Virus record (IMG/VR): IMGVR_UViG_3300023110_000008
Reading direction: 5' to 3' (one strand)
Origin: an uncultured virus (IMG/VR IMGVR_UViG_3300023110_000008)
Lineage: Duplodnaviria > Heunggongvirae > Uroviricota > Caudoviricetes
DNA length: 64,000 bases
Under the pieces are notes generated by a model. The model was not told the DNA's origin. It made no database searches and saw nothing but the letters and a program-made list of their open reading frames with translations. The first letter of the stretch is position 1. Every line of letters begins with the position of its first letter. The translations under genes and the position numbers were made by a program. Of this stretch, positions 9,701 to 28,178 are shown piece after piece.

Positions 9701-10494
9701 TAGATGGCGGTGGTAGTCAAGTTAGAAGTACAAGAAACATCTATTATGATGCAATTCATACAATGATACCTTCTATAACATTTAATAATACTCAAATATT
9801 CTCAAGTATTAATAGAACAGGTATGGGTTCACCAGAAGATTCAAACTTAGATACTGAATATGTAAGAAGAACTGCAAATGACTTTATTAAATTAAACGAT
9901 AACGTTTACTTCAGTAGACCAAGTGTTGTTGCATCACCCCTCAACGAATTAGAGAGAATGGGTAACCAGAGATCATTTAGATTATTACTACAAATGAGAT
10001 CATCAAATCCAAACGTATCACCTTACATTGATACAGGTACAATTGGTTGTCTAGGTATTATGAACAGAATTAATGATATTGATTCTGCTGCCGATCTATC
10101 AGATGGTGAAGTTTACGTACCATCAACAGAACCAGATGGCGATAACAACGCAATGGTATACACAACAAGATTGGTAAGTTTAAAGAATCCTGCTACATCA
10201 TTGAAAGTTTTATCAGATAACTTTAGACCACCTAACTCAGACATTAAAGTTTTATACAAACTCATCAAAAACGATGAAGATACACCAGTAGATGATTTAG
10301 GATTTGAATTCTTTAACTCAACTGGTGGTCCTGACACAGCTATTGATCAAGACGCTAGAAACTTTAAAGAATACGAATACACAGCAGACAACTTACCTGA
10401 ATTTACAGGTTTTGTAATTAAGATTGTAGGACAGGCTACAAACACATCTCAAGTACCAATAATTTCTGGTCTTAGATGTATAGCATTAGCATGA
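3727..10494 (+). CDS. Large virion structural protein, VrlC-like (DUF4815-type)
   Basis: N-terminal [28 protein letters not shown], plus [36 protein letters not shown] and DPLAESF motifs seen in T4-like marine phage structural proteins. Confidence 0.8.
8314..8560 (+). repeat. Pro/Thr low-complexity linker inside the VrlC-like protein
   Basis: About 80 aa of [14 protein letters not shown]...; locally C-rich DNA. Confidence 0.9.
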
Positions 10495-12595: not shown

Positions 12596-14260
12596 ATGGC
12601 AGATAAAATTTACATTAAACACAATTTAAATGGCGGTAGTTTTCAGCAACCTTACATAGCAAGGCAACCTGCTAACATTCAAGAACCAAATATAAGACAA
12701 CAACCATCGATTGTTCCTTATACGTTTCAGTCTCCTTCGACTTATCAGAATCAACAACCAATAATTTATCGAAATCCTGTTAATAGGCAAAATCCTTTTA
12801 TAAGAAACGCACAGCAACCTAACATAAGATCGAGACAAAATCCTTTTATAAGAAACGCACAACAAACGTATACTTATCAGGCCGATGCACAATCACCTTA
12901 TATTGCTAATAGACAGAATCCGTATCCGTATCCTGCAAACGCACAAACACCGTTTACGTATCAACATCAAAGTCCTTCAACTTATAGAGACCCAAGAAAT
13001 GCACAGGTTATAGTTGCGTATCAACATCAATCACCTAGTACATATCGTGACCCAAGAAGTTACAGAAATCCTGTAAGTTATGCTTATAGATCACCTAGTA
13101 CATATCGTGACCCAAGAAGTTACAGAAATCCTGTAACATATCAGGCACAACAACCTACTACGTATCAACACCAGTCACCAGCAAATATAAACGCACAGGA
13201 GTCAAATCAACAACCTGTACCTTATAGAGTGCCTTCAACTTATCAAGCACAACAAAGAAGTCCTCAAACATATAGGGTGCCATCGATTTATCAAAATCCG
13301 TTTACGTATCAGGCGCAAAGACCATCGCCTTACATTTATCAATCGCCTTCGACTTATTCAGCACAAGGCCAAACGCCTTACATATATCAGTCACCATCGA
13401 CTGCTCAGGTACCAACATCATATGAAGGTATTGTAGGCGAATCAGCACTGTCTGGAAGTTCAACAGCAACAAGTGCAACTTTAGCTAATCAACCGAACCC
13501 TCAACCTTGGGGCTCAGGTATAAGTAATCCTGTTTGGGATGTATATCCTTTTGGTGGTAGTACGAATTATATAAATTCTGACCCACCTTCAGGAACTGCT
13601 TCTATGTTTAGTGTACCAAGTTGGAATACTCTTCAATTAGCAACTGGTAATCCTGGTTTTAATCATACCGAATGTGGTTGTTATATGCAATTTGATTTTG
13701 CAGCTAACAATAATACTGTTCAGACAAATCCTTTAGGGGCTTTTAGAATATCGTATGGTCATTATAACTCTTTTAGTAATAGTGGTTGGAGTTTTTATTA
13801 TAGATTTTATATGCCTATTACCGATTTGAATGCTAATGGTATAATTGACGATACTTGGAATTTTGATGTAGCATATTATGCAAGTGGTGAATCGGTATCA
13901 GGTACTCAAGCTCAAACAAATTGTTACGGAGGAGGTGGAAACAGTTATGGATTTTATCCACATGTTTGTGGAAAAACCAGAGGCCAATATTATAATTTCT
14001 GGTCTGGTTCAACTTCAAGGGGTGGATTTAATGGTACTCGCACTGCTAGATTTTTTAAGTGGGGTGTATACGACAGCACAGGTAATCCAGTACAATTAAC
14101 ATCAAATGATGTTTATTTTGGAATAAAAGCAACAAAAGGCACAGACACTTATTATACATATTTTCATATAGCTTCATACTTCAACGGTTCTTGGTCATCA
14201 AGCCCCATAAGTTTAAGAGCAGCATATAATGCAGGTAGTGGGGGGCCAATAATAGTATAA
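12596..14260 (+). CDS. Pro-repeat ribbon protein C with C-terminal globular (putative receptor-binding) domain
   Basis: Residues ~19-273 are Pro-delimited 6/8/10-mer words (PSTYRD, PFTYQHQS, PFIRNAQQ). Residues ~275-554 are a non-repetitive aromatic-rich domain. Confidence 0.75.
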   Translation: MADKIYIKHNLNGGSFQQPYIARQPANIQEPNIRQQPSIVPYTFQSPSTYQNQQPIIYRNPVNRQNPFIRNAQQPNIRSRQNPFIRNAQQTYTYQADAQSPYIANRQNPYPYPANAQTPFTYQHQSPSTYRDPRNAQVIVAYQHQSPSTYRDPRSYRNPVSYAYRSPSTYRDPRSYRNPVTYQAQQPTTYQHQSPANINAQESNQQPVPYRVPSTYQAQQRSPQTYRVPSIYQNPFTYQAQRPSPYIYQSPSTYSAQGQTPYIYQSPSTAQVPTSYEGIVGESALSGSSTATSATLANQPNPQPWGSGISNPVWDVYPFGGSTNYINSDPPSGTASMFSVPSWNTLQLATGNPGFNHTECGCYMQFDFAANNNTVQTNPLGAFRISYGHYNSFSNSGWSFYYRFYMPITDLNANGIIDDTWNFDVAYYASGESVSGTQAQTNCYGGGGNSYGFYPHVCGKTRGQYYNFWSGSTSRGGFNGTRTARFFKWGVYDSTGNPVQLTSNDVYFGIKATKGTDTYYTYFHIASYFNGSWSSSPISLRAAYNAGSGGPIIV

Positions 14261-14261
14261 A

Positions 14262-15191
14262 ATGCCAACCGTACAAGTAACATATAGCAATTCAAACGCA
14301 ACGCCAGGACAACAGCCGTATCCTTATATTGCTAATAGACAAAATTCTACTAACGGTACTACGCCTGTGCCGTACATTGCTAATGCCCGTGCATCAGCAA
14401 ACGCTCAGACAGTTGCTAATACTAGAGTGCCTATTCCTTACATAGCAAACGCACAGACAGCTGCTATCGCAAGAAGTCCATTTCAATCACCATACATTGC
14501 ACAACAACAGAATCCGTTTATTAGAAATAGACCATCACCTTATGTTGCAAATCAACGTCAACCAGCAGCTTATCAACATCCTGTTAACAGACAGAATCCG
14601 ATAATTGGTAGCTATCGTATATCAGCTAATTACAGACATCCTGTAAATAAACAGAATCCGTTTATAAGAAATAAACCTTCACCTACAACTTACAGACATC
14701 CTGTTGATAGACAGAATCCATTTATTAGAGATGCAAGACAGCCTTCAACATATCAGGCAACAGGGCGAACACCAACAACATATCAACATAGGCAACCTAT
14801 AACATATCCTACAACAGGTAGAACACCATTTACGTATCAACATAGATCACCATCGTTCTATCAACATAGAATACCATTTACGTATCAACATAGATCGCCA
14901 GATACATATAGGGTTTCTGCTTCTCAACCTTCACCATATATTGCAAATGCTCAGAATACAAGAAGTGGTAACATTGTTGTACAAACTACATATCAACATA
15001 GATCACCATTTACATATCAGATAACATATTCTAGCAGAAGACCTATAGGTCCTGTAGCAGAAGTTAAACAAGTTTATGTTAAAGATGCAGACGGTACTGT
15101 AAAACAATTAGAAGAAGCATACGTAAAAACTGATCCAACTACAGTAGAAAAAATACATACAAAAGTCCCATATTCCCAATTAAATAATTAG
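14262..15191 (+). CDS. Pro-repeat ribbon protein D (mirror partner of C)
   Basis: Same word vocabulary in reversed order. C-terminal VYVKD...AYVKT module. Confidence 0.75.
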   Translation: MPTVQVTYSNSNATPGQQPYPYIANRQNSTNGTTPVPYIANARASANAQTVANTRVPIPYIANAQTAAIARSPFQSPYIAQQQNPFIRNRPSPYVANQRQPAAYQHPVNRQNPIIGSYRISANYRHPVNKQNPFIRNKPSPTTYRHPVDRQNPFIRDARQPSTYQATGRTPTTYQHRQPITYPTTGRTPFTYQHRSPSFYQHRIPFTYQHRSPDTYRVSASQPSPYIANAQNTRSGNIVVQTTYQHRSPFTYQITYSSRRPIGPVAEVKQVYVKDADGTVKQLEEAYVKTDPTTVEKIHTKVPYSQLNN

Positions 15192-15195
15192 TCCG

Positions 15196-15203
15196 TATAA
15201 ATA
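15196..15203 (+). promoter_or_regulatory. Late promoter TATAAATA
   Basis: Exact consensus, 5 nt before the ATG at 15209. Confidence 0.75.
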
Positions 15204-15208
15204 GTAAT

Positions 15209-15544
15209 ATGGCAATTATAGCAAATCTTTACATAGATCAAGGTTCAGACTTCAGCATTACAGTAGATGTAACAAACTCTGATGGTTCAGTTTTAGACCT
15301 ATCAGGTTATTCAGCAGCTGCACAAATGAGAAAAACATATACGTCTTCTTCAGTAAGTGCAACATTTTCTACATCTATTTCAGAGGCTTCAGGTCAGGTC
15401 ACTTTGTCTTTAACAGATACACAAACAACTGCTCTAAATCCAGGCAGATATCTGTATGACTTAAACATAACAAGTTCTGGTGGTCAAACTAGTAGAGTTG
15501 TCGAAGGACAAGCTATTATAACGCCAGGTGTAACTAGGAGTTAA
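15209..15544 (+). CDS. Conserved small virion/fibre-attachment protein (Ig-like)
   Basis: NLYIDQGSDF...DLSGYSAAAQMRK...GRYLYD...RVVEG...PGVT pattern common in T4-like phages. Confidence 0.7.
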   Translation: MAIIANLYIDQGSDFSITVDVTNSDGSVLDLSGYSAAAQMRKTYTSSSVSATFSTSISEASGQVTLSLTDTQTTALNPGRYLYDLNITSSGGQTSRVVEGQAIITPGVTRS

Positions 15545-15546
15545 GT

Positions 15547-15789
15547 ATGGCAATTAAAGGTGTAGTAGGAAGAGTAGCAGGCATCTCAGGAAAGGTGCAA
15601 GGTCAAGGTAACTTTAGAGTAAAACAAGTTGCAATTGGTAACTCATCTACTAATGTCAATCTATCAGCTAAATCTATACAAGAACTATCAGATGTAGATG
15701 CTAGTGAAACAGATAACGGCCTATTGGCATATAACGCATCGTCTGATAAGTGGGTTACTACCACTGTTATAGACGGCGGAACATTTTAG
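15547..15789 (+). CDS. Small fibre-associated protein ending in IDGGTF
   Basis: ELSDVD..DNGLLAYNASSDKW motif and DGGTF terminus. SD GGAG upstream. Confidence 0.65.
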   Translation: MAIKGVVGRVAGISGKVQGQGNFRVKQVAIGNSSTNVNLSAKSIQELSDVDASETDNGLLAYNASSDKWVTTTVIDGGTF

Positions 15790-15792
15790 TCT

Positions 15793-15800
15793 TATAAATA
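15793..15800 (+). promoter_or_regulatory. Late promoter TATAAATA
   Basis: Exact consensus upstream of a ~140-nt leader. Confidence 0.75.
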
Positions 15801-15814
15801 CTATTACAATCAAG

Positions 15815-15892
15815 GTGTCATTCAGTGAGACACGACCCTCATTGTGAGAGGACGAGATAGATAATGATCTTCTAGGGATATGTGAACTAGAA
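15815..15892 (+). other. Candidate structured 5' leader RNA with three hairpins
   Basis: Stems GTGTC/GACAC, CCTC/GAGG and TTCTAG/CTAGAA. All three loops contain GTGA. Confidence 0.45.
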
Positions 15893-15939
15893 ATTTGCAA
15901 ATTTTATATTAAACCCAATTCATTTTTTAGGAGAAAAAA

Positions 15940-17508
15940 ATGGCAACAGTTATTCAAATTAAAAGAAGTACAGGAGCGAGTGCGCCAACAGTCTCAGACT
16001 TGAGCGAAGGCGAATTAGCGTATGTACAGGATAGATCGAATGACGGTGCTTCTGCTAAATTGTATATCGAGTCAGTAGACTCAGGCTCATCAGCTGTTAT
16101 TCACGAAATCGGCGGTAAATATTATACCGATATCGTAGACGGTGATGCTCCAACGCCTTCAAACTTTATTGTTGGTAACGGTGCAACTTCTGGTGCTTCA
16201 TTACAACTTAGAGAAGATTCAGACAACGGTTCAAACTTCGTTGGTCTGAAAGCTCCTGATTCAGTTGCAAGTTCAGTAACCTTTACATTACCATCAGCTG
16301 ATGGTTCTGCTAACCAGGTTCTTGCAACAGATGCTTCAGGAAACCTTTCTTTCGTATCTACAACTTCAACACTTGCTGGTGCATCAGACTCAGATATTTC
16401 TGCTCCTTCATCAGGTCAAATTTTGATCTATGATGGTACAGATTCATTTGATAACGTTTCACTTTCAGGTGACATAACAGTTAACGCTTCAGGTGTTACT
16501 GCAATTCAAGCTAACGCAGTTCAAGTAGGAAACATTGACTTCTTAGTTGACGAAGACAACATGGCTTCTGATTCAGACGTTAAAGTTCCTACACAGCAAT
16601 CTGTTAAAGCATATGTTGATTCACAAGTAACAGCACAAGATTTAGACATCTCAGATGGTACTACATCTATTGCTATCGACCTTGACTCAGAAGTACTTTC
16701 TGTTTTAGGTGGTACTGGTGTTTCATCAACTGCTTCAGGCAACGGCGTAACATTAGCAATCGGTCAGGATGTTGGCACATCATCAAACGTACAGTTTAAC
16801 AACGTACAAGTAGATGGTACACTAACTTCAGATGACATTACATCAACAAATATTGCCGCTTCAGGTAACTTAACAGTTTCAGGTAACTTGACTGTTAACG
16901 GTACTACAACTACTGTAAACTCTACAACTACTTCAGTTGCAGATCCAGTGTTTGAAATCGGTGATGACGCTTCAGATGACAACCTAGACAGAGGTATCAA
17001 ATTTAAGTGGCACAATGGTTCTACTGCTAAAATTGGTTTCTTTGGTATGGATGATTCTGACGGTAAATTTAAATTTATCCAAGACGCTACAGACACATCT
17101 TCAGTATTCTCTGGTTCAGTAGGTAACGCAGTATTCGGTAACTTAGAAGTTTCAGGACTTGCACTTTCAGGTTCAATTACTTCTATAGACGGTGCAGCTC
17201 CTACAGCAGGACAATTACTAATTGGTAATGGTTCTAACGGAGATATGGAACTTGCTGCTCTTTCAGCTGGCGAAGGTATCGATGTAACAAACGCTGACGG
17301 TAGTATAACAATAGCAGGTGAAGATGCAACAGACGCTAATAAAGGTATCGCATCTTTCTCAGCTTCATACTTTACTGTAACATCTGGTGATGTTGCAATC
17401 GATGATGCTACAACATCTGCTAAAGGTATTGCTTCATTCGACTCAAGTAACTTTACAGTCTCTTCAGGTGCTGTATCTGTTACTGCTATAGACGGTGGTA
17501 CATTCTAA
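15940..17508 (+). CDS. Tail fibre-like structural protein
   Basis: N-terminal IQIKRS...[12 protein letters not shown]...[32 protein letters not shown], ATxxxKGIASF repeats, C-terminal IDGGTF. Confidence 0.75.
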
Positions 17509-17536
17509 TTTAACATCTAATCTATAGGAGAGAACA

Positions 17537-18364
17537 ATGGCAACATTAATACAATTTAAAAGGAGTTCTACACAAAGCGCTTTGCCTGGTATAGGTGATC
17601 TATCACTAGGTGAATTAGCTGTCAATACTTATCATGGTAGATTTTATACCGAGAAGAATGACGGCTCAGCTGCTGTTGTAGAAGTTGGATCGAATCCAGC
17701 TTCTTTAACTGTTAATGATGCTTTCTCTTTTCCTACAAGTGATGGTTCCTCAAATCAGATTTTAAAAACTGATGGTTCAGGAACTTTGAGTTGGTCAGAC
17801 CAACCATCTTCGGGTGTACAAACATTCACTTACACTATATCATCAACTGGTACTTCAATTACAGGTAACGATGATAATGGTAATTCACTTTCATATACCT
17901 CAGGTTATGAACAAGTGTACATTAACGGTGTTAAGTTAGTAGGTGGTGGTGCAGACTATACTGCTACCAGCTCATCAACTATCACATTAACGGAAAATGC
18001 TTTAAATGGTGATGTTGTTGAAGTAGTCGCTATTACTAGTGCAGCTAACCTTGTTCAAGGTTACTTCACTACATTATCAGCTACTGCTACTACAGCAGAT
18101 CAGGTGTTATCAGCAAACGCAATTGCCAACAAGGCAGTTAAGTATGTGATCATGGCATCACATGCATCAGCTGGCACACATTCAGCAGAAGTATTATTGA
18201 TTAATGATGGCTCGAATTCTTACTTCGTTCAATATGGCGATGTATATTCAGCGTCTTCATTATTCACGTTAAGTTCAGATGTAAATTCAGGAAACATGAG
18301 ATTGCTTGTGACTCCTGCAAATACTAATACAACATTCAAAACCTTCCAAATTAGGTTATCATAA
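17537..18364 (+). CDS. Fibre-associated structural protein
   Basis: IQFKRS...GELAVN, FPTSDGSSNQILKTDGSG, VYINGVKL...DYTAT. Confidence 0.7.
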   Translation: MATLIQFKRSSTQSALPGIGDLSLGELAVNTYHGRFYTEKNDGSAAVVEVGSNPASLTVNDAFSFPTSDGSSNQILKTDGSGTLSWSDQPSSGVQTFTYTISSTGTSITGNDDNGNSLSYTSGYEQVYINGVKLVGGGADYTATSSSTITLTENALNGDVVEVVAITSAANLVQGYFTTLSATATTADQVLSANAIANKAVKYVIMASHASAGTHSAEVLLINDGSNSYFVQYGDVYSASSLFTLSSDVNSGNMRLLVTPANTNTTFKTFQIRLS

Positions 18365-18374
18365 GGAGTAGACA

Positions 18375-18785
18375 ATGGCTAAAACAAATGCATTTAAAGT
18401 CGCTGAGTTAATTAGAGTATTGTCTTACGATTCATCTAATGATGTCATCACTACTTCTAAAGAGTTGGATACTAAACATAGAACGTCTACAGCATTAACA
18501 ACAACATCTACATCTCAAGTCGACTTGGACACTTTTGCCCATGCTGACTTTAGAGCTGCTAGATATGTTATTGCAATGTCAGAAGGTTCTAACTATCATT
18601 CAACTGAGATAGTATTAGTACATGACGGAAGCGCAGTAACCATGACTCAATACGGTACATTGAAAAACACTAGTGTTGCATCATTCGATGCTGACATTAA
18701 TGGTTCCGACTTGAGACTCAGAATTACACCTGCCTCAGCAAACAGTACAACTATTAAATTCCACAGGACTTTAGTAGGCGCTTAG
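18375..18785 (+). CDS. Fibre-associated structural protein
   Basis: FRAARYVI...YHSTEIVLVHDG...TQYG domain, paralogous to the C-termini of both neighbours. Confidence 0.65.
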   Translation: MAKTNAFKVAELIRVLSYDSSNDVITTSKELDTKHRTSTALTTTSTSQVDLDTFAHADFRAARYVIAMSEGSNYHSTEIVLVHDGSAVTMTQYGTLKNTSVASFDADINGSDLRLRITPASANSTTIKFHRTLVGA

Positions 18786-18802
18786 AACTAAGCAACTTTC
18801 TT

Positions 18803-18832
18803 GAGAGGGGATCACATGATCCCCTTTCTTTT
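18803..18832 (+). terminator. Rho-independent terminator
   Basis: AGGGGATC-ACAT-GATCCCCT followed by TTCTTTT. Confidence 0.8.
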
Positions 18833-18881
18833 ACTTCCAAAAAGTCATAAATAGTACTGAGAATATATTTTTGAGATTATT

Positions 18882-19622
18882 ATGGCAACAAAATCAAAAT
18901 TTTATGCAGACATAGGACTAGAAACAGGTCAAGACCTGTTGGTCGATGGCGATGCGACAATCACAGGCAATTTAACAGTTAATGGTACACAAACTACCGT
19001 TAACAGTACAACCACGTCTGTTATAGACTCAATGATCGAACTTGCGAACTCAAACACGAGTTCAGATACAGTTGACATAGGGTTATATGGTAACTACGAT
19101 GATGGTTTATCAGACAGCGGCAATGAGTTCACAGGTCTTTTTAGAGATGCTAGTGATTCTACATGGAAATTATTTGACGGTTTAGAAGTAGAACCTACTA
19201 CAACAGTTAACACTTCAGGCACAGGTTACGCTAAAGCAGCTTTAGAAGTTGGTGATTTAACATGCACTACTATCACTGCTTCAGACACATTAACAATCGA
19301 TAGTTTGGTTGTTGATAGTAATACAGGTACAACAACCACTACAACATCGGAAACAGACTTAGATTCGTTTTCTTTATCAAATTATCGAAGTGCTAAGTAT
19401 ATTTTACAAGCAACAGAGGGTACAAACTATCACACATCTGAAGTTGTTGTAATTCATGACGGTTCAACTGCTTACTTTACACAATACGCTGAGATAGTTA
19501 CAAATAGTTCGTTGTATTCAGTATCAGTTGCAGTTGAAAGTGGTAATGTAGTTTTAAAGATTACACCTGCTTCTGCAAACTCGACTGTATTCAAATGGTC
19601 ACGTCAATTAATTAAAGTATGA
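18882..19622 (+). CDS. Fibre-associated structural protein
   Basis: [34 protein letters not shown] and YRSAKY domain. CATAAATA late box at 18846-18853. Confidence 0.7.
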   Translation: MATKSKFYADIGLETGQDLLVDGDATITGNLTVNGTQTTVNSTTTSVIDSMIELANSNTSSDTVDIGLYGNYDDGLSDSGNEFTGLFRDASDSTWKLFDGLEVEPTTTVNTSGTGYAKAALEVGDLTCTTITASDTLTIDSLVVDSNTGTTTTTTSETDLDSFSLSNYRSAKYILQATEGTNYHTSEVVVIHDGSTAYFTQYAEIVTNSSLYSVSVAVESGNVVLKITPASANSTVFKWSRQLIKV

Positions 19623-19710
19623 TTTTTGTTTAAATTTTGTTTAAACCACCTTTTTGAAGAGTAATCTCTACTAAATAATACTGTATACACTCAATTAGGA
19701 CACACTAACC

Positions 19711-19971
19711 ATGGCAACACAAAATAATTTTGTTATAGAATACGGATTAAACATCGGTTCTACAGAGGTCATAACTAGTGCTGGTAAAATTACCGCTGGA
19801 TCAGTATCCGCACTAGACTCAGATGACATCACAGAAGGTGCAACGAATCAATATTTTACTAACGCAAAAGCAAGAGGTGCTATTTCATTAGCATCTGGAG
19901 AAACGAATTTATCTTATAACTCATCAACGGGTGAGTTTTCATTACCGCAAGTTGACGGAGGTACTATCTAA
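19711..19971 (+). CDS. Small fibre-associated protein ending in VDGGTI
   Basis: DDITEGATNQYFTNAKAR repeat. N-terminus paralogous to the next gene. Confidence 0.65.
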   Translation: MATQNNFVIEYGLNIGSTEVITSAGKITAGSVSALDSDDITEGATNQYFTNAKARGAISLASGETNLSYNSSTGEFSLPQVDGGTI

Positions 19972-22268
19972 TGGCAGGGGAAAAGAATTTTAATATTAAA
20001 AACGGCCTGTCAATCGGTGGAACAGAGGTTATTAGCTCTTCTGGATCATACGTTGGTTCAATTTCAGCATCAGCATTAGATGAGTCAGTAGACGATAGAG
20101 TCGCTCAACTTTTAACAGCAGGTACAGGCATCACATTAACATACGATGATGCTGCTAACACACTAACAATCGCAGGTGCAGCCCAATACGGCGACTCAGA
20201 TGTATTATCATACTTAGGTGGTGGTACATTTGCAGGTAACATCATACCAAGCGCAGATAACACATACGACTTAGGTTCATCAAGTAGAACATGGAAAGAC
20301 GTATACGTTGGACCTGGTTCTTTATATGTTAACGGACAACAGGTTATTTCAGATGACTCAGGTACAATCGTCTTTAGTGCTGACTCTAACCAAAACATGT
20401 CTATACAGACAAGTGGTTCTGGTGATTTAGAGTTAGATGCAACAGGATCAGGTGTTATTGCACTTAAAGGTCCAGTTCAAATCGAAGACGGTAACAATAT
20501 TACCAACAGTGCAGGAAACAACATCACATTTAGTAACAATATTGCAGTTGATCAAATCGTGTCCAGATCAGCTGATACTAACTTAGTATTGAGTGGTAAC
20601 GGAAATGGTGTTATTTCACTTAACGATGATGTTACAATCTCAGGTTCACTAACAGTTTCAGGTACAACAACAACTGTAAACTCAGAGACAATTAACCTTG
20701 CAGACAACACAATCGCATTAAACAGTAACTTTACTTCAGGTTCACCAACAGAAGATGCTGGTTTGAGTGTAACTAGAGGTAGTTCAACTGCAAAAACATT
20801 CTTATGGGATGAGACCAACGATAAATGGACAGTCGGTTCAGAAACTTTTGTTGCAGGAACATTCGAAGGAAACTTAACTGGTAACGTAACTGGTACAGTT
20901 ACTAGTATTGCTAACCATGACACTGGTGATTTAGCAGAAGGTTCAAACTTATATTTCACTGACGCTAGAGCAGATGCTAGAATCACAGCAGCTCTTATCG
21001 ATGAAGATAATATGGTGTCTAATAGTGAAACAAGAATACCTTCTCAACAATCAGTTAAAGCATATGTAGATTCACAAGTCGCAAGTAAAGACAATACAGA
21101 TGAAATAACAGAAGGCTCTACAAACTTATACTTTACAAATGCAAGAGCAGACGCTAGAGTTCAAAATGCAATCGATACAGATGTTAATTTTGGTAGTGCT
21201 TCAGATACTTTAGTACCTTCTCAGTTAGCAGTCAAAACTTATGTTGATGCACAAGTAGATACAGCAGATGCATTAAGTGAACTAAGTGGTGATTCAGATG
21301 ACATTACAGAAGGTTCAACAAACTTATTCTATACAGATGCTAGAGCAAGAGCATCTCTAAGTACAAACTCTGGTGCAGGTGCATATGATTCAAGTACAGG
21401 TGCTATTACAATACCTTCAACAACTGCTCATATTTCAGAAGGTTCAAACCTTTACTTTACAAACGCTAGAGCAGATGCTAGAGTTAATGCATTATTACCA
21501 GATACAGATTCGTTAACAGAAGGTTCATCAAACTTATACTTCACAGACGAAAGAGTTGATGACAGAGTAAATGCTTTAGTAACAGCAGGTACAGGCATCA
21601 CATCAACATACGATGATGTAAATGGTACCTTAACACTTGCAACAACAATTACACAATATGCTGATTCAGATGCAAGAGGTTCAATCTCTGTTACTGATTC
21701 AGGTGGTGATGGAAGTTTAGCATACAATTCATCTACTGGTGTAATCACATATACTGGCCCAAGCGCTTCAGAAGTTAGAAGTCATATTAGTGCAGGAACT
21801 GGTGTCTCAATTAGTTCAGGTGAAATAAGTATTGGTCAGGCAGTTGCTACAACAAGTAACGTACAATTTGGTAACTTAACATTATCTGGTAACCTAACAG
21901 TTAATGGTACTACATCAACTGTAGATTCTACAAATACAACAATCAGTGATGCATTGATTGAATTAGGGTCTGGTAACACAGGTGCTAACTCAAATGACCT
22001 TGGTCTTGTGTTAGAAAGAGGTTCAACTGGCGACAACGCATTTATGGGTTGGGACGAAAGTGCTGATGAGTTTGTAGTTGCTACAACAACTGCAACTGGT
22101 GCTTCTACAGGTTCGTTAACATTAACAGACGCAAACTTTAGAGCATCACAAATTTCAACATCATACGCTTCAAATAGTGGTGGTGTTGCGAGAAACATAT
22201 ATCAATCAACTTCTGCACCTACTTCAGGTGACGGAGCAGTTGGTGATCTATGGATTCTTTATTCATAA
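19971..22268 (+). CDS. Long tail fibre-like protein (fibre 2)
   Basis: Multiple TDxxxEGSxNLYFTxARA repeats. C-terminus is APTSGDGAVGDLWILYS. Confidence 0.75.
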   Translation: MAGEKNFNIKNGLSIGGTEVISSSGSYVGSISASALDESVDDRVAQLLTAGTGITLTYDDAANTLTIAGAAQYGDSDVLSYLGGGTFAGNIIPSADNTYDLGSSSRTWKDVYVGPGSLYVNGQQVISDDSGTIVFSADSNQNMSIQTSGSGDLELDATGSGVIALKGPVQIEDGNNITNSAGNNITFSNNIAVDQIVSRSADTNLVLSGNGNGVISLNDDVTISGSLTVSGTTTTVNSETINLADNTIALNSNFTSGSPTEDAGLSVTRGSSTAKTFLWDETNDKWTVGSETFVAGTFEGNLTGNVTGTVTSIANHDTGDLAEGSNLYFTDARADARITAALIDEDNMVSNSETRIPSQQSVKAYVDSQVASKDNTDEITEGSTNLYFTNARADARVQNAIDTDVNFGSASDTLVPSQLAVKTYVDAQVDTADALSELSGDSDDITEGSTNLFYTDARARASLSTNSGAGAYDSSTGAITIPSTTAHISEGSNLYFTNARADARVNALLPDTDSLTEGSSNLYFTDERVDDRVNALVTAGTGITSTYDDVNGTLTLATTITQYADSDARGSISVTDSGGDGSLAYNSSTGVITYTGPSASEVRSHISAGTGVSISSGEISIGQAVATTSNVQFGNLTLSGNLTVNGTTSTVDSTNTTISDALIELGSGNTGANSNDLGLVLERGSTGDNAFMGWDESADEFVVATTTATGASTGSLTLTDANFRASQISTSYASNSGGVARNIYQSTSAPTSGDGAVGDLWILYS

Positions 22269-22301
22269 TTGATAAATAGATAAAAAGCGAGAAAGGATTA
22301 A

Positions 22302-24077
22302 ATGGCGACAGGCTCACAGAAAGTAAAAACCCCCTCAGGTTGGAATTCAACCCAAGGTGCATGGGTTAAAACTGCTTCAAACACTTGGAAAGATGTAGAT
22401 CAAATTTACATTAAAACTCCTAGTGGGTGGAATAACGCATCAGGTCAACAACCTACACAACAACCATATCCTTATATTGCTAATAGACAGAATCCATTTA
22501 TAAGAGATGCACAACAGCCGTATCCTTATATTGCTAATAGACAGAATCCATTTATAAGAGATGCACAACAACCGTATCCTTATATTGCGAATGCTCAATC
22601 GCCTTATATTGCGAATGCACAAAACTCTGTATCATATAGACATCCTGTTAATGCACAGAATCCGTTTATAAGAAATAGACAAACACCAGCATTCTATAGA
22701 CATCCAGTAAATGCACAGAATCCGTTTATCAGAAACGCACAACAACCTGCTTCTTATCAACATCCTGTTAATGCACAGAATCCGTTTATCAGAAACGCAC
22801 AAACACCAGCTGGGTATAATCACCCTGTAAGTGCTCAGACTCCGTTTATAAGAAATAGACAAACACCAGCATCTTATCAACATCCAGTTGCTGCTCAAGA
22901 GCCTAATATTAGAAGCGGTCAAGAACCAAATATTAGGTCTGCACAAGAACCAAATATCAGAAACGCACAAACACCGTTTACGTATCAACATAGGTCACCA
23001 TTTACATATAGAGACCCAAGATCATATAGGGTGCCATTTACGTATCAACATAGATCACCATTTACATACCGTGATCCAAGATCATATCAGATACCGTTTA
23101 CGTATGCGTACAGATCACCATTTACATACCGTGATCCAAGATCATATAGGGTGCCATTTACGTATCAACATAGATCACCGTATACGTATAACCACAGATC
23201 ACCGTTTACATATAACCACAGATCACCGTTTACGTATAACCATAGATCGCCGTTTACGTATCAGGCAAGACAACCTAATAACGCAAGGACTCCATTTACA
23301 TTCCGTGCGCCGTTTACGTATCAGGCAAGACAACCTAATAACGCAAGGACTCCATTTACATTCCGTGCGCCGTTTACGTATCAGGCAAGACAACCAGTTG
23401 CTGCTAGACAACCTAATAACGCAAGGCAACCAAACAACGCAAGGCAACCAAATAACGCAAGGCAACCAAGTACTACACAACAAACAGCAAGATATCCATT
23501 TATCTTCCCAGCAGTGTACTTCTATCAACCGTTTGGTCCAATACCTGGTAACATTCCTGGAGGTGGCAAAGGATGTTTTGTTGCCGGCACAATGATATGG
23601 TTGGGCGATGGCAGTCATGTACCAATTGAAACAGTAGAAGTTGGTCAAGACGTAATGACTTGGAACGAAGAGACAAATAAATTAGAGATCGGTGTAGTCG
23701 AAGAGTTGATGCAACCAAGAGAAGTATCAATACATGAGATACATTTATCAGACGGTAGAATACTTGAAACAACTTCAGAACATCCATTTAGAACAATGAA
23801 TGGTGAATGGGGTGTTATCAACTTAGAGAAATTTAAAGAATTCCACAAAGAAGAAGGTGGAGATGAATTTGTAAATTCAGAAATCGCAGTCGGTGATCAT
23901 TTGATGACCATGACAGATGCTGTACTAGGTACAGAAATAGGACTAGAAATAATTAAAATAGAGGAGAAAGATTCACAACAGGTGTATAACTTGAAGAACG
24001 TTGGCGACAATCACAATTTCTTTGCAAATGGTGTATTAGCTCACAACTTCTTCTTCTTTAAACCATCACCTAAGTAA
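22302..24077 (+). CDS. Pro-repeat ribbon protein A with C-terminal Hint domain
   Basis: N-terminal VKTPSGW module, residues 55-389 Pro-delimited repeats, residues 425-582 Hint domain (CFVAGT...TSEHPF...VYNL...HNFFANGVLAHN). Confidence 0.85.
   Translation: MATGSQKVKTPSGWNSTQGAWVKTASNTWKDVDQIYIKTPSGWNNASGQQPTQQPYPYIANRQNPFIRDAQQPYPYIANRQNPFIRDAQQPYPYIANAQSPYIANAQNSVSYRHPVNAQNPFIRNRQTPAFYRHPVNAQNPFIRNAQQPASYQHPVNAQNPFIRNAQTPAGYNHPVSAQTPFIRNRQTPASYQHPVAAQEPNIRSGQEPNIRSAQEPNIRNAQTPFTYQHRSPFTYRDPRSYRVPFTYQHRSPFTYRDPRSYQIPFTYAYRSPFTYRDPRSYRVPFTYQHRSPYTYNHRSPFTYNHRSPFTYNHRSPFTYQARQPNNARTPFTFRAPFTYQARQPNNARTPFTFRAPFTYQARQPVAARQPNNARQPNNARQPNNARQPSTTQQTARYPFIFPAVYFYQPFGPIPGNIPGGGKGCFVAGTMIWLGDGSHVPIETVEVGQDVMTWNEETNKLEIGVVEELMQPREVSIHEIHLSDGRILETTSEHPFRTMNGEWGVINLEKFKEFHKEEGGDEFVNSEIAVGDHLMTMTDAVLGTEIGLEIIKIEEKDSQQVYNLKNVGDNHNFFANGVLAHNFFFFKPSPK
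23574..24047 (+). other. Hint (intein-like/BIL) auto-processing domain, no endonuclease
   Basis: Cys1 (tgt at 23574), block-B TxxH (TSEH), terminal His-Asn. The +1 residue is Phe. Confidence 0.9.
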
Positions 24078-24088
24078 TCTAAAGTAAA

Positions 24089-25219
24089 ATGGCAACAGGT
24101 TTTTATCCAGCAAATGCTCAAGGTATTACACAGGCTTCTGTTCCTGTGCAGACACCTTTTACTTTCCAGAATCCATTTACATTCCAGAATCCATTTACAT
24201 TCCAGAATCCATTTACATATCAGTCACCTTATATTGCAAATGCTAGACAACCTAATAACGCAAGGCAACCGTTTACTTTCCAGTCGCCTTATATTGCAAA
24301 TGCTCAACAACCTAATAACGCAAGGCAACCGTTTACTTTCCAGTCGCCTTATATTGCGAATGGTCAACAACCTAATATTAGATCAGCACAAGAACCTAAT
24401 ATTAGAAGCGGTCAAGAACCTAATATCAGATCAGCACAAGAACCTAATATTAGAAATGCTAGACAACCAGCAGCATATAGAGCACCTGTATCAGCACAAC
24501 AACCAGTAATTGGTAATGCTAGACAACCAGCAGGTTATAGACACCCTGTATCAGCACAAGAACCTAATATTAGATCAGCACAACAACCAGCAGGTTACAG
24601 ACACCCTGTATCAGCACAAGAACCTAATATTAGAGGCGCTAGACAACCTTCGACTTATCAACATAGATCACCGTTTACGTATCAACATAGGTCACCGTTT
24701 ACATATAACCATAGATCGCCATTTACATACCGTGATCCTAGATCATATCGTGTACCTAGCACATATCAACATAGATCGCCGTCTACATATCAAGACCCAA
24801 GATCATATCGTGTACCTAGCACATATCAACACAGATCACCATCTACATATCGTGATCCAAGAAGTTATAGAGTACCTAGCACGTATAACCATAGATCACC
24901 AAGTACTTACAGAGATCCTAGAGCATATCGTGTACCTAGCACATATCAACACAGATCACCAAGTACTTACAGAGATCCTAGAATAACACAATCGCCAAGT
25001 ACATATCAACATAGGCAACCTGTGACATATGCAAGACAAGGTCAAACTCCGTTTACCTATCAACATAGATCACCAAGTACATATTCTAGACAAGGTAGAA
25101 CTCCGTTTACCTATCAACATAGATCACCAAGTACTTACGCTACACAAGGTAGAACACCAGTGAATCGTTGGGACGGTGTATTGTCACAACAGTGGCCAGC
25201 ATCTCCAATTACGTCATAA
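24089..25219 (+). CDS. Pro-repeat ribbon protein B (mirror partner of A)
   Basis: Nearly all repeats; proline spacing is the exact reverse of protein A. Confidence 0.85.
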   Translation: MATGFYPANAQGITQASVPVQTPFTFQNPFTFQNPFTFQNPFTYQSPYIANARQPNNARQPFTFQSPYIANAQQPNNARQPFTFQSPYIANGQQPNIRSAQEPNIRSGQEPNIRSAQEPNIRNARQPAAYRAPVSAQQPVIGNARQPAGYRHPVSAQEPNIRSAQQPAGYRHPVSAQEPNIRGARQPSTYQHRSPFTYQHRSPFTYNHRSPFTYRDPRSYRVPSTYQHRSPSTYQDPRSYRVPSTYQHRSPSTYRDPRSYRVPSTYNHRSPSTYRDPRAYRVPSTYQHRSPSTYRDPRITQSPSTYQHRQPVTYARQGQTPFTYQHRSPSTYSRQGRTPFTYQHRSPSTYATQGRTPVNRWDGVLSQQWPASPITS

Positions 25220-25248: not shown

Positions 25249-26853
25249 ATGAGAAAATTAGAAACCTTAGAAGCCGTACAAGAAGCATTTCAAAATAGAA
25301 GATCACCATTTGGGCCAGATAGTGGCGATGAAGTCATTTTCATGGATCATTGTCATATTGGTAGTATCGAACTATCCAAAGACTACAAGGAAACTGAAGC
25401 ATATAAGTCTTTAGATTGGTTGATGAAGAATAAATTACCAAAACTAAAGCATGTTAAATGGAAAGAAGCTTCTAAATTGATAGACGAAAGATTATACGAT
25501 TATTCTGATACAACAAAATTACAACCGTTTAATCAATTACAACATCAAGCATATGTCTATCAATATTATTTGCAGTACGGTTATACTGAAAAACCTGAAA
25601 CACCAATACCTGGTCATTCTGGCTTTGATTTCAAAAACCGAAATGATGAATATCAAAAGATAACAGACTATACAAAATATGTTTTTGGTGCAGAAGGCCC
25701 AACTGAAAGACAATTAGAAATCAATAATTCAACTTATTATCACAGTGCTAAAGCACACTGGTTAATTGATAGTATCAAACATGAAGGCCTTTGGAATCCA
25801 ATCCAAGGTGTAGTGAACAAACCTTCTTCAGAAGAAGAACGATACACTCTTAGAATACATCCAGGTTCTGTAAGATCAGCAGTATTTGAAATGATAGATG
25901 ATCCAGATATGGAAATGTTTGTATGGGATAAGTTTGATTTATTTGATTCAGAAGTTCTATCAGCTGAACAAGTAATTGAATTATGGAAAGCCTTTGTTGA
26001 AAAGAAAGATAAACCAACACATCTTTCATTTACATATACAGAGGGTTTTATAGAAATGCATAGTGCTTTTGCTGATATCGGTTTTAGAAGTACAGTTACA
26101 GACTTCAATAAAAACATTATGAAAATGGCAAAAGGCAAACCTATATCAATCTATGTGGGTTACGATAGTCGTCATGGTGATCTTGCTGAAACAAATGTTA
26201 AGTTGCTTCAAAAAGGAATTGAATATGGTTTTGGTAAAGGTGACATGTATGAATTTATAAAAGACTGGCAACCTAATATTAAGATACTAGATGTATCAAA
26301 GATACCTGAATACACTAGAGAGTATGCTAATCAATCAACAGAGTTTACATATAGTAGATTCTTAATACCTTACCTAGAAAATTATGAAGGTTTCAGTATC
26401 TTCTTAGATGATGACATATTGTTTAGTAAGTCTATACTACCACTATTCTATTTCTTAGACCCAAAAGATGCTATTGCTTGTGTACAATACGATTTCGAAA
26501 ATCATAGTGATACTAAATTTGATGGCGAAAAGAATGTTTCTTATCCTAAGAAATTGTGGTCTAGTCTTATGGTATTCAATAATGCACACGAAGACTGTAA
26601 GAAGTTAACACCAGAAGTAGTGAATACAGAGTCAGGAAAGTATTTACATCAATTTGAATGGACAGACAAGATCAGTAGAATACCACCTAGACATATTATA
26701 ACTGAAGGATATGAAACACATTTAGACAAACCACATGCTTTAGCAATTCACTGGACACGTGGTGGCCCATGGATAAAAGACATGGATACCAGTGATATAA
26801 ATATGTTAGACGTATATGAAAGAGCGTATGCGAGAGCGAATAAAGTCTCTTGA
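25249..26853 (+). CDS. Two-domain protein: ParB/Srx-like N-terminal domain fused to a GT-A glycosyltransferase
   Basis: C-terminal QSTEFTYSRFLIPYL..YEG.SIFLDDD, YPKKLWSSLMVFN, YLHQFEW and IHWTRGGPW motifs. N-terminal LIDSIKHEGLWNPIQG...IHPGSVR. Confidence 0.7.
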   Translation: MRKLETLEAVQEAFQNRRSPFGPDSGDEVIFMDHCHIGSIELSKDYKETEAYKSLDWLMKNKLPKLKHVKWKEASKLIDERLYDYSDTTKLQPFNQLQHQAYVYQYYLQYGYTEKPETPIPGHSGFDFKNRNDEYQKITDYTKYVFGAEGPTERQLEINNSTYYHSAKAHWLIDSIKHEGLWNPIQGVVNKPSSEEERYTLRIHPGSVRSAVFEMIDDPDMEMFVWDKFDLFDSEVLSAEQVIELWKAFVEKKDKPTHLSFTYTEGFIEMHSAFADIGFRSTVTDFNKNIMKMAKGKPISIYVGYDSRHGDLAETNVKLLQKGIEYGFGKGDMYEFIKDWQPNIKILDVSKIPEYTREYANQSTEFTYSRFLIPYLENYEGFSIFLDDDILFSKSILPLFYFLDPKDAIACVQYDFENHSDTKFDGEKNVSYPKKLWSSLMVFNNAHEDCKKLTPEVVNTESGKYLHQFEWTDKISRIPPRHIITEGYETHLDKPHALAIHWTRGGPWIKDMDTSDINMLDVYERAYARANKVS

Positions 26854-26878
26854 AATTTAACACACACAAGTGTATAAT
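26850..26878 (+). promoter_or_regulatory. Sigma70-like promoter TTGAAA-N17-TATAAT
   Basis: Near-consensus hexamers with a 17-nt spacer. Confidence 0.5.
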
Positions 26879-26887
26879 GAGGTAATT

Positions 26888-27439
26888 ATGAATATGTTAA
26901 TTTATGATGAAAACAGTAATCTAATCATTAGAAAACCAAATGGATTAGAATACTCTTTCGAAAACACAGATAGACCAAATCTTGGTTTTGAATATGATGT
27001 ATTGGTGTACGATGACATCGAAGTTAAAATTGAGAAATGGGAAGAAGATAAATGTTTTAACGATCAGGTCAAAATAAATCTAAACTCAGATGAAATAGAT
27101 GCTATCGAAGAATATATCAATCAGTCTGAACCACCTGCTGGTGTTTCATTAAACAATCAGTATGCAAACAAACTATCTGATATGGCTCAAAACTATATCG
27201 ATGATCAAGTACAAGCATATGGTTTCCGTGATTTACTAGAAGTAACTATAGCAGGAAGAGAGGGCTCAAATCACCCTTTAAGATCAGATGCAAGAAGAGT
27301 TATGGAATATTCAGACGTTATATGGAATGTATACGTTAATGTATGTAATGAAATAGGCGAAACAAGAGAAGACACACTACAAGACTTTGAGTATTATTCA
27401 AATAATTTTCCATCACCTCAAAAGTCATTAATAGCATAA
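26888..27439 (+). CDS. Putative tail fibre assembly/chaperone-like protein
   Basis: ATG preceded by GAGG. C-terminal QNYIDDQVQAYGF...RSDARRVMEYSDVIW resembles helical fibre-assembly proteins. Confidence 0.45.
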   Translation: MNMLIYDENSNLIIRKPNGLEYSFENTDRPNLGFEYDVLVYDDIEVKIEKWEEDKCFNDQVKINLNSDEIDAIEEYINQSEPPAGVSLNNQYANKLSDMAQNYIDDQVQAYGFRDLLEVTIAGREGSNHPLRSDARRVMEYSDVIWNVYVNVCNEIGETREDTLQDFEYYSNNFPSPQKSLIA

Positions 27440-27440
27440 A

Positions 27441-28178
27441 ATGAGCCTGCTTGTAGAAAAGGTTGATTCTCCTTTTCATATTCAATCATTACCTTTAGAT
27501 AAAGTCTACATAATTGATAATTACTTAGAGACTTCTATATGGCATTGGATTAATCAAAGATTTACAAGCAGTAATATTTGGTCTAAAACAAATCAAGTGG
27601 GTAGCGAAAGCCCAACAGGATTACCTCACCATAGTTTTTGGGGTGCAAGTTTCTTCAAGGCTGATCGGGACAATAAAGATTTCGGATTTCACAATGTTGA
27701 AGGAGATATTGATAAGAAAGATTCTTATCCTGCTCACTATCTAAATAGAAGAATATGTACAGATTTCGGTTTCAAATGGAAAAGATTTCAGTACATGGGT
27801 TTAAACTCACAGACAATGGGTTGTCATGGAACAACTCATGCAGATTGTGATACTAATGATTCATGGAATTTATCTTTCTTATACTATTACAATACATATT
27901 GGAATCCCGAATGGGGTGGCACATTAAGATTATATGATGAACCTCAACAGGGTTTAGAAGGTAGAAACGAACATATTAAAAACCACCAAATCGCTGAAGT
28001 GGAGTTTGTACCAAATAGATTAGTAATGTTTGACGGCAGAATACCACACGGTGCAGATGCACCAAATGAAACTGCTAGATACATGGATAGAAGATCAATT
28101 GTTTTAAGAGGCGATGAAGTAGAGATAGGAGTTAGCGAAGAGTTTTATAATGCCAACGATAGACTTTATTACATATAA
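27441..28178 (+). CDS. 2OG-Fe(II) oxygenase (prolyl-hydroxylase-like)
   Basis: HxD (THADC), WNPEWGG, PNRLVMFDGRIPH and distal Arg (RRSIV). Confidence 0.8.
   Translation: MSLLVEKVDSPFHIQSLPLDKVYIIDNYLETSIWHWINQRFTSSNIWSKTNQVGSESPTGLPHHSFWGASFFKADRDNKDFGFHNVEGDIDKKDSYPAHYLNRRICTDFGFKWKRFQYMGLNSQTMGCHGTTHADCDTNDSWNLSFLYYYNTYWNPEWGGTLRLYDEPQQGLEGRNEHIKNHQIAEVEFVPNRLVMFDGRIPHGADAPNETARYMDRRSIVLRGDEVEIGVSEEFYNANDRLYYI

Follow-up and report, generated by a model that had tools for sequence, protein, structure and literature searches.

Mirror-ordered proline-delimited words in two gene pairs of an uncultured virus point to antiparallel two-chain fibre shafts

We report two pairs of adjacent genes, in a 64,000-nucleotide stretch of DNA from an uncultured virus of the Caudoviricetes (IMG/VR record IMGVR_UViG_3300023110_000008; the whole stretch is called the window below), whose products carry proline-delimited peptide words in mirror order. 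In each pair the first gene encodes what we term the x chain (genes A and C) and the second the y chain (genes B and D), and the words of x read forwards are matched by complementary words of y read backwards. From this pattern and its recurrence in related gene pairs, we consider it probable, on comparative sequence, that the two chains of each pair lie in-register and antiparallel.

Results

A single antiparallel register in each gene pair

When the proteins are cut before each proline, the repeat regions of A, B, C and D resolve into words of 6, 8 or 10 residues, all of even length, and every proline of A between residues 51 and 419 falls on an odd position. Family-wide, 1720 of 1721 words bounded by facing prolines are of even length. 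We scanned all parallel and antiparallel registers for all ten pairings of the four proteins. A single register stands out for A/B, which is antiparallel and gap-free (i+j=412) and places 47 prolines opposite prolines, the next best reaching 33 at a shift of one 20-residue unit. Likewise, C/D has one outstanding register, also antiparallel (i+j=280), with 23 facing prolines against 15 for the next best. The non-cognate pairings A/D, B/C, A/C and B/D reach at most 22 facing prolines and the self pairings at most 32, with no standout register. With the partner's word order shuffled 2000 times, facing prolines average 19.0 for A/B (maximum 29) and 11.9 for C/D (maximum 19), so that neither observed value is ever attained.

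A sequence-only reading of the four open reading frames (ORFs) had proposed that words between opposed prolines pair by fixed rules, whichever chain carries them. All the words that it quoted are found at the residues it gave, every word pair that it claimed is contained in the alignment, and the swap in polarity of word types between the chains, which it placed at A225/B187, is seen there as well. Allowing small relaxations (such as PVAAQE and PAAYRA), 45 of the 46 A/B word pairs fit the coded rules.

Between A and B there is no DNA inverted repeat beyond one 14-nucleotide (nt) match, and both genes are read from one strand, so that only the proteins, and not their genes, mirror each other. 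The DNA encoding the A repeat shaft consists of tandem repeats of 18, 24, 54, 60 and 120 nt with 60-100% matches. The arrays that face each other in A (23248-23395, 100% matches) and B (24221-24377, 94%) have both expanded recently.

The pairing code in related gene pairs

Searching a viral contig collection with B recovered 261 related stretches, from which 73 loci were kept, and searching with D added 90 more, with 78 loci kept. Except at contig ends, the repeat genes in these loci occur as adjacent same-strand pairs. About 418 homologues in a large protein collection (E<=0.001) are all metagenomic and, if named at all, are called 'hypothetical protein'.

For 37 pairs with distinct class strings, we reduced the words to classes and laid x forwards over y backwards. 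The order of classes varies widely among phages, and the partner follows each time. Words of the type xTYxHxx (class H) face xIRxxxx (class I) in both directions (H:I 287, I:H 190), with near absence of like pairs (H:H 1, I:I 3). The same reciprocity is found for xTYQ[ANS]xx (Q) and YIANxxx (A) (Q:A 82, A:Q 69), for the 10-mer PYPYIANxQx (P) and xTYxxQGxT (T) (P:T 122, T:P 26), and for xTYxD (d) and VxAQx (v) (d:v 50, v:d 56). These reciprocal counts bear out the proposal that the pairing rules hold regardless of chain. A further check, which the sequence-only reading had itself suggested, is the mutual information between opposed words over homologous pairs; for facing 8-residue words it amounts to 1.575 bits, compared with 0.127 bits when words are shuffled within a pair (maximum 0.174 in 1000 shuffles). 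The 6- and 10-residue words show the same pairing behaviour.

Residue covariation was resolved within the H:I class, for which there are 206 unique word pairs. The strongest signals are at (2,6') (z 25.6), (2,8') (z 20.5), (6,4') (z 16.5) and (8,2') (z 7.2), and these positions share one parity, the non-proline one. In the proposed register (2,8'), (6,4') and (8,2') are directly opposed, and (2,6') is a diagonal neighbour on the same face.

Length matching and partner specificity

We next consider 60 distinct complete A/B-type pairs, the window pair included. The best antiparallel register exceeds the best parallel register in all 60, and a median of 90% of y prolines lie opposite an x proline. 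In 53 of these pairs the offset s-len(y), where s denotes the register, is 36-38, and the length of y ranges from 206 to 562 amino acids (aa). The last residue of y thus lies beside x residue ~36 whatever the length of y, indicating that the two shafts change length together. This matching of shaft lengths between partners agrees with the earlier suggestion that word order is tied to fibre length. The suggestion that word order also confers partner specificity is supported in that 37 of 42 x proteins find their best match, alone or tied, in the cognate y, and neither A/D nor C/B has a good register.

A third type of pair, with the gene order apparently reversed, is found at loci L145 (1265-1918/1929-2738) and L147 (4971-5624/5635-6444). 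Here, the first gene encodes 217 aa with an N-terminus resembling that of B, the second encodes 269 aa and ends in a Gly-rich C-terminus like that of x, and 27 of 29 prolines are opposed.

Fused and self-complementary forms

The two arms also occur within single genes. Thirty related loci reduce to 21 distinct arrangements, of which 12 have a single fused gene without an adjacent repeat gene and 9 have a split pair. In four proteins (P0005, P0014, P0083 and P0121) the first arm read forwards matches the protein's own second arm read backwards, above all 500 word-order shuffles each, and the arm classes of P0005 (GHHHHQIIII over 8IIIIAHHHH) follow the same code. The alignment of P0083 (488 aa) to C starts at residue 1 of both proteins (E 7e-31), and the C-terminus of P0083 aligns to the C-terminal end of D (E 9e-34); the P0083 cluster contains a second full-length 488-aa member from a different source. 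In P0121 the self-complementary stretch is internal (residues ~88-308). Gap-free self-symmetry lies above all 300 shuffles in six of the 12 fused genes. The C+D fusions are proteins of normal length; the homologues longer than 658 aa included five C-like proteins with a tip and a Hint domain and no A+B fusion.

Fused, split and self-complementary versions of one module are a classical sign of parts that act together. Since a single chain can pair its own arms only by folding back, the middle of the chain would lie at the far tip, which would make the 282-aa domain of C the distal tip of the C/D fibre.

Residues facing glycine in variant words

A rare pair of variant words is repeated in both gene pairs of the window (Table 1), and had been read as a compensatory substitution in which a change of QH to AY in one word is accompanied by a change of Arg to Gly in the facing word. 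Across 71 distinct clear-register pairs we tabulated the residue opposite the fourth residue of P.[IV][GRKA] words. Opposite Gly (27 cases, two of them copies of the window's pairs) the residue is Y in 11, F in 11, A in 3, V in 1 and S in 1, and never His. Opposite Arg or Lys (935 cases) it is His in 786, Y in 89, V in 30 and F in 15. The Gly cases are scattered over many sites and are found on both chains, in A/B-type as well as C/D-type pairs. Besides the window's two pairs and identical copies, the exact AY pair occurs only at L081, the others being SF, SY, AF, IY, EY, GY and QV. As read from the alignment, the common 10-mer pair has the same geometry, with G8 of xTYxxQGxT opposite Y4 of PYPYIAN.

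One direction of the claimed compensation thus stands, in that Gly faces Y or F in 22 of 27 cases and never faces His. The other does not, as Y or F is mostly found with Arg or Lys retained (104 cases, versus 22 with Gly). Strict coupling, under which neither the AY nor the IG variant would occur independently, fails, and the dependence of Gly on an aromatic or small partner holds. The tabulated words indicate that Gly requires an aromatic (or small) residue opposite. Since an aromatic occurs mostly with Arg/Lys and Gly never with His, the substitutions suggest a permissive-then-dependent order rather than a strict two-way coupling.

Conserved ends, variable ends and the Hint domain of A

The first ~50 residues of A/B-type x chains contain two highly conserved KTPxGWN...W motifs. 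In the antiparallel pair, this conserved N-terminus of x and the conserved C-terminal tail of y fall at the same end. The C-terminal ~48 aa of D also form a conserved non-repeat end (..VYVKD..EKIH..VP..), which recurs in the fused single-gene forms. The opposite end varies. There, y begins within a few residues, and x terminates in one of three ways, with a short Gly-rich tail, with a domain of ~150 aa, or with a Gly run and then a domain of ~160 aa. The 282-aa C-terminal domain of C has only its self-match among 1.84 billion representatives, and a search against the Atlas returned only scores of 0.83, within the range reported for shuffled or reversed proteins.

Residues 425-582 of A are, by structural model, a Hint fold of the bacterial-intein-like (BIL) type. 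The domain matches the BIL structure 2LWY in the Protein Data Bank (PDB) at E 5.6e-6. In Pfam, Intein_splicing scores 33.3 bits against a gathering cut-off of 35.8, and PT-HINT, Hint_2 and Vint likewise fall below their cut-offs. An AlphaFold2 (AF2) model built on an 11-sequence alignment has a mean predicted local distance difference test (pLDDT) value of 86.1, and Foldseek places BIL2 of Tetrahymena (6TMM/6Y75) at the top of its matches to this model (E 3e-11 to 1e-10, TM 0.70-0.84), followed by inteins and hedgehog (1AT0). All 11 sequences retain the first Cys, the block-B His and the terminal His-Asn, and at least 90% have the block-B Thr of Thr-x-x-His.

Immediately after the terminal Asn, position +1 is occupied by F, Y, G or L in every one of the 11 sequences, none of them a nucleophile, and only 6-30 residues follow. 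Lacking both the +1 nucleophile and the downstream extein of a true splicing intein, the domain fits auto-cleavage better than splicing. A review describes A-type BIL domains as ending in His-Asn, as located in hypervariable regions and as cutting at their own termini while leaving the flanks unligated (PMC7765530). Given this behaviour and the missing +1 nucleophile, self-cleavage is expected at Gly424/Cys425, and the sequence suggests that the Hint domain of A probably cuts itself off at this Gly-Cys junction. The domain shares with the known BILs (2LWY, 6TMM, 6Y75) the Hint fold, the N-terminal Cys, the block-B Thr-x-x-His, the His-Asn end and the absence of a +1 nucleophile, and it likewise lies in a hypervariable protein region. 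Unlike them, it would lie distally on a phage fibre chain, where only 9 residues follow it.

In other phages, the C-like proteins P0121-P0125 (661-695 aa) have a middle globular domain and a C-terminal Hint domain, with an acidic run and a CC motif before the Hint. A self-cleaving cap would thus not be limited to A-type chains.

A model of the fibre shafts

We propose that A with B, and C with D, form the two chains of thin fibre shafts in which both chains would be extended as beta-type strands. The extended, beta-like conformation is suggested by the word-length increment of 2 residues and the single parity of the prolines. Facing prolines would occupy non-hydrogen-bonded positions with the missing NH directed outward, so that the edges of the ribbon are blocked and no further strands can be added; such blocking is a design principle in the edge-strand literature. 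The two faces differ in composition. The non-proline face of A/B is Y, A, F, H or V at 190 of 334 positions (57%), and the proline face has a polar character, with abundant Q, R, T, N and S. This arrangement leaves room for several ribbons to pack face to face.

The complementary words (xTYxHxx/xIRxxxx, xTYQAxx/YIANxxx, PYPYIAN 10-mer/xTYxxQGxT, xTYxD/VxAQx and NNARx/FTFxx) would give a single stable register, and the code would prevent both slippage by one repeat unit and cross-pairing of A/B with C/D in the same virion. Because unlike words pair and like pairs are nearly absent, a shifted register or an A/D or C/B pairing would be a poor match, which offers a plausible reason why one phage could make two such fibres. 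The conserved end would anchor the fibre to the virion, through the N-terminal domain of x and the C-terminal tail of y in A/B and through the C-terminal end of D in C/D. The opposite end would carry a variable tip, namely the BIL/Hint domain in A and the 282-aa orphan domain in C.

Weighing the model against alternatives

Several points weigh against this model. The fibre role and direct backbone contact between x and y are drawn from sequence comparison, and the presence of these proteins in the virion as a fibre is putative. The shafts of A and B carry net charges of +33 and +32 over 335 residues each (family mean ~+7.5 per 100 aa), so that two strongly cationic chains would lack charge complementarity and have repulsion to overcome. 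A proline every 6-10 residues is also unusual within beta strands. Side-chain volumes on the aromatic face are anticorrelated (r -0.21; shuffles sd 0.02), with similar values at offsets -2 and -3 in A/B, so the register is not singled out. Only 7 of 17 C/D word pairs fit the strict rules, the remainder being mostly near-variants of the same classes. The class counts given above come from related loci and block-duplicated repeats, and thus describe a pattern rather than provide probabilities and overstate the number of independent events. Self-symmetry is marginal in two and absent in four of the 12 fused genes, by a gap-free test that misses arms with insertions or deletions. Five of the 42 x proteins fit a non-cognate y better, and seven of the 60 pairs depart from the usual offset, L082 and L083 by 3 residues and L015, L017, L052, L063 and L135 by 44, 88 or 18. 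These last shifts correspond to whole repeat units, and for L015 and L052 a better-fitting y is present on another contig; tentatively, we attribute the off-register pairs to short-read assembly having collapsed or expanded the repeats, or to recent unequal crossovers that have yet to be compensated. Structure prediction carries no weight in either direction: a complex prediction for A189-344 with B68-223, run without controls, scored 0.00 with partner pLDDT below 50, and AF2 on the self-complementary P0005 from its single sequence, without an alignment, gave a mean pLDDT of 33.4 and no structure in the repeat region.

Antiparallel, in-register pairing is the part of the model that we favour, and a more ambitious combination of claims is possible but rather doubtful. 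In it, the words are a modular pairing alphabet acting through direct cross-strand contacts in an isolated two-stranded beta ribbon of more than 100 nm, their order alone sets register, partner and length, and the Gly thioester formed by the BIL domain joins the C-terminus of x to the N-terminus of y into a covalent hairpin like that of the fused genes. Transfer of the thioester to the N-terminus of y, which is adjacent in the model, is speculation. It is unlikely, in our judgement, that the same antiparallel x/y pairs are instead bundled, two or three of them packing their Tyr/Phe/Ala/His faces into a narrow core like that of the six-stranded needle of T4 gp37, with the code serving largely to keep side-chain volume constant per layer. 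Such a bundle would account for one face with 57% Y, A, F, H or V and another that is polar, for the predominance of big-small pairs on the aromatic face (A:Y 312 and G:Y 155 of 2472 facing pairs) and for the need of Gly for an aromatic opposite, and phage fibres are usually trimers. A comparable packing constraint between subunits, in which Gly must face Phe of another subunit, is described for the needle of the T4 fibre protein gp37 in the relevant passages of PMC6957217. The position of all prolines on one parity is a better fit to free outer edges than to a closed barrel, both faces lack strong hydrophobicity, the four proteins have no metal-binding HxH motif, and the volume anticorrelation is not specific to the register. 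The absence of HxH from all four proteins also led us to reject a metal-binding needle. A collagen-like or polyproline-II (PPII) triple helix was rejected as well, as word lengths differ by 2 rather than 3 and there is no run of four or more G-X-Y triplets; Gly makes up 2.6-7.0% of the whole proteins and 0.6-2.7% of the A/B shafts.

The mirror order could also arise if x and y never touched and both followed a third polar structure, such as another fibre, in opposite directions, with that structure as the template. Several long fibre proteins are encoded beside the pairs and x:y contact is itself putative, and yet this explanation is highly improbable. It predicts like words with like at the same level, in conflict with the reciprocal unlike pairing observed (H:H 1, I:I 3); the length of y in A/B-type pairs varies from 206 to 562 aa, with the upstream fibre gene, whose length may vary too, conserved in 40 of 42 loci; and the fused hairpin forms stand alone. 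Hardly credible is the remaining possibility, that the repeats are disordered low-complexity linkers whose mirror order reflects chance, DNA rearrangement or misassembly of repeats. Pfam and PHROGs are blank for B, C and D, the region is made of tandem DNA repeats, and some metagenomic pairs are mismatched by whole repeat units, as misassembly would produce. This explanation is already contradicted by the shuffles of both window pairs and by the family survey, where all 60 pairs, drawn from many samples, obey the rule and partners keep their match through changes in repeat number. An origin of the mirror by DNA inversion was rejected for lack of an inverted repeat between A and B, and inversion could not put Pro opposite Pro on the same strand.

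Source phage and gene neighbourhood

The window encodes a T4-like myophage gene set as identified with Pfam and PHROGs, including a gp8-like baseplate protein, a VrlC-like protein (2255 aa), several fibre-like genes and neck proteins, together with gp15, terminase, sheath, tube, portal, prohead protease, scaffold, major capsid protein and a CsgG homologue. The closest cultured relatives at the DNA level are cyanomyophages and Pelagibacter phage Mosig, and the source is a T4-like marine myophage, probably a pelagimyophage. The homologue of CsgG, the curli secretion channel, lies at 62707-63645 (Pfam E 1.5e-50). In its passage on these genes, a metagenomic study reports a curli (CsgG/CsgF) cluster of unknown role as widespread in pelagimyophages (PMC7029224), which together with the CsgG homologue backs placing the window in this group.

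Genes run from gp8-like and VrlC-like through fibre-like (phrog_697, phrog_892) to neck, sheath and portal, as in a fibre/baseplate operon, and the C/D and A/B pairs sit between the VrlC-like and the neck genes, among the fibre genes. A 765-aa fibre gene precedes the A/B-type pair in 40 of 42 loci. The metagenomic study describes the VrlC-to-neck region of pelagimyophages as a hypervariable 'host recognition cluster' (PMC7029224). Proline repeats come up neither in this passage nor in the one on curli, and the paper uses neither 'proline' nor 'intein' anywhere. Our best reading of the gene order is that the A/B and C/D pairs belong to the phage's host-recognition cluster. Pfam and PHROGs return zero matches for B, C or D, and no match to the A protein, the A-B DNA or the N-terminal 55 aa of A was found among 50,697 cultured-phage records, in a search where the low-complexity filter of BLAST may hide repeats. 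The coordinates of the genes and their parts are given in Table 1.

Table 1. Genes of the two pairs and features within them, by position in the window
Feature	Position	Strand	Description and basis
Gene C (x chain, second pair), 554 aa	12596..14260	+	ORF; repeat arm at residues 19-272, then a 282-aa C-terminal domain
C159-166, PVSYAYRS	13070..13093	+	Variant word; opposite D113-120
Gene D (y chain, second pair), 309 aa	14262..15191	+	ORF; begins 1 nt past the C stop; repeat arm at ~residues 19-261
D113-120, PIIGSYRI	14598..14621	+	Variant word with Gly; opposite C159-166
Gene A (x chain), 591 aa	22302..24077	+	ORF; N-terminal domain, repeat shaft, Gly linker, C-terminal BIL/Hint
A residues 1-54, Trp-rich N-terminal domain	22302..22463	+	Proposed anchor, MATGSQKVKTPxGWN...IYxKTPxGWNNASGQ; near-identical in related A/B-type x
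A residues 55-389, repeat shaft	22464..23468	+	Proline-delimited words of 6/8/10 residues; word cutting and register alignment
A265-272, PFTYAYRS	23094..23117	+	Variant word, Tyr at word position 6; opposite B139-146
A residues 425-582, BIL/Hint autoprocessing domain	23574..24047	+	Cys start after Gly run, His-Asn end; fold and catalytic residues
Gene B (y chain), 376 aa	24089..25219	+	ORF; begins 11 nt past the A stop; repeat shaft at residues 23-356
B139-146, PVIGNARQ	24503..24526	+	Variant word, Gly at word position 4; opposite A265-272
B residues 357-376, conserved tail	25157..25216	+	PxxRWDGxxSQQWPxTPIxS; adjoins the A N-terminal domain in register

Downstream of B lie a GT8-like glycosyltransferase gene (25249-26853, 534 aa; Pfam 23.0 bits, cut-off 24.3), a 189-aa ORF (26870-27439) and two 2-oxoglutarate (2OG)-Fe(II) oxygenase genes (27441-28178 and 28995-29690). 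These four genes are present after the A/B-type pair in 42, 42, 41 and 39 of 42 distinct loci, respectively. Their products could hydroxylate or glycosylate the Pro/Asn/Arg-rich shafts, or their presence could reflect mere conserved backbone synteny.

The small protein encoded after D (15209-15544) has a sub-threshold match to an LtfC-like beta-sandwich (24.4 bits, cut-off 27), and its homologue is found beside A/B-type pairs in none of 42 loci. The VrlC-like protein (3727-10494) contains a linker of ~80 residues rich in Pro, Thr, Ser and Glu (PTPTP-type, ~residues 1425-1505), whose pattern is unrelated to the period-2 words of A-D. Long alternative-frame or antisense ORFs are found within the repeat genes (12626-12892(-), 22632-22991(-), 22888-23595(+), 23223-23648(-), 24114-24509(+) and 24510-24986(+)). 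They are open because the repeats lack stop codons in several frames, and we see no reason to call them genes.

Discussion

The closest known object is the needle (domains D10-D11) at the tip of the T4 long tail fibre, formed by gp37 (PDB 2XGF) and likewise a segment of a phage fibre. Each gp37 chain runs to the tip and back, with strands antiparallel along the fibre axis and the tip at the turn, giving a six-stranded needle. Whereas three copies of a single chain with iron-binding His motifs make up the gp37 homotrimer, A-D would form shafts of two different chains (or of one self-complementary chain) and have no HxH, and they differ further in their proline-delimited words of 6, 8 or 10 residues and in the reciprocal word code. 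When B was compared with PDB sequences, no chain matched at E up to 1, gp37 included.

Two further systems offer analogies of principle. In the stalk of streptococcal antigen I/II (SpaP/SspB), Ala-rich and Pro-rich repeats pair antiparallel into a long thin stalk with a globular domain at the turn. As proposed for x/y, two different repeat arrays are thus paired antiparallel, unit for unit. However, antigen I/II pairs an alpha helix with a PPII helix, the two wound together within one chain, whereas x/y have a 2-residue beta-type unit, are usually encoded by two genes and swap words between chains. In heterodimeric coiled coils and the antiparallel arms of SMC/Rad50, register, partner and length are set by a short repeating code. 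That code is the alpha-helical heptad with its hydrophobic and charge patterns, whereas x and y are proline-rich, lack heptads and are both cationic. A search of the full-text literature, whose coverage mostly leaves out subscription journals, found no description of the mirror-coded design or of its motif strings.

If the chains pair as their sequences imply, they would constitute a natural protein 'duplex' whose register, specificity and length are encoded by a limited vocabulary of complementary peptide words. A single virus would then carry orthogonal natural sets (A/B and C/D), with natural length variants spanning ~200-560 residues. Such sets would supply ready parts, already tested by evolution, for the design of heterospecific beta-type assemblies and molecular rulers, and the existence of split, fused and self-complementary natural forms makes the idea directly testable. 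For phage biology, the design would represent a new building principle for fibres that are otherwise homotrimers, and its placement in the host-recognition cluster would bear on how such phages find their hosts.

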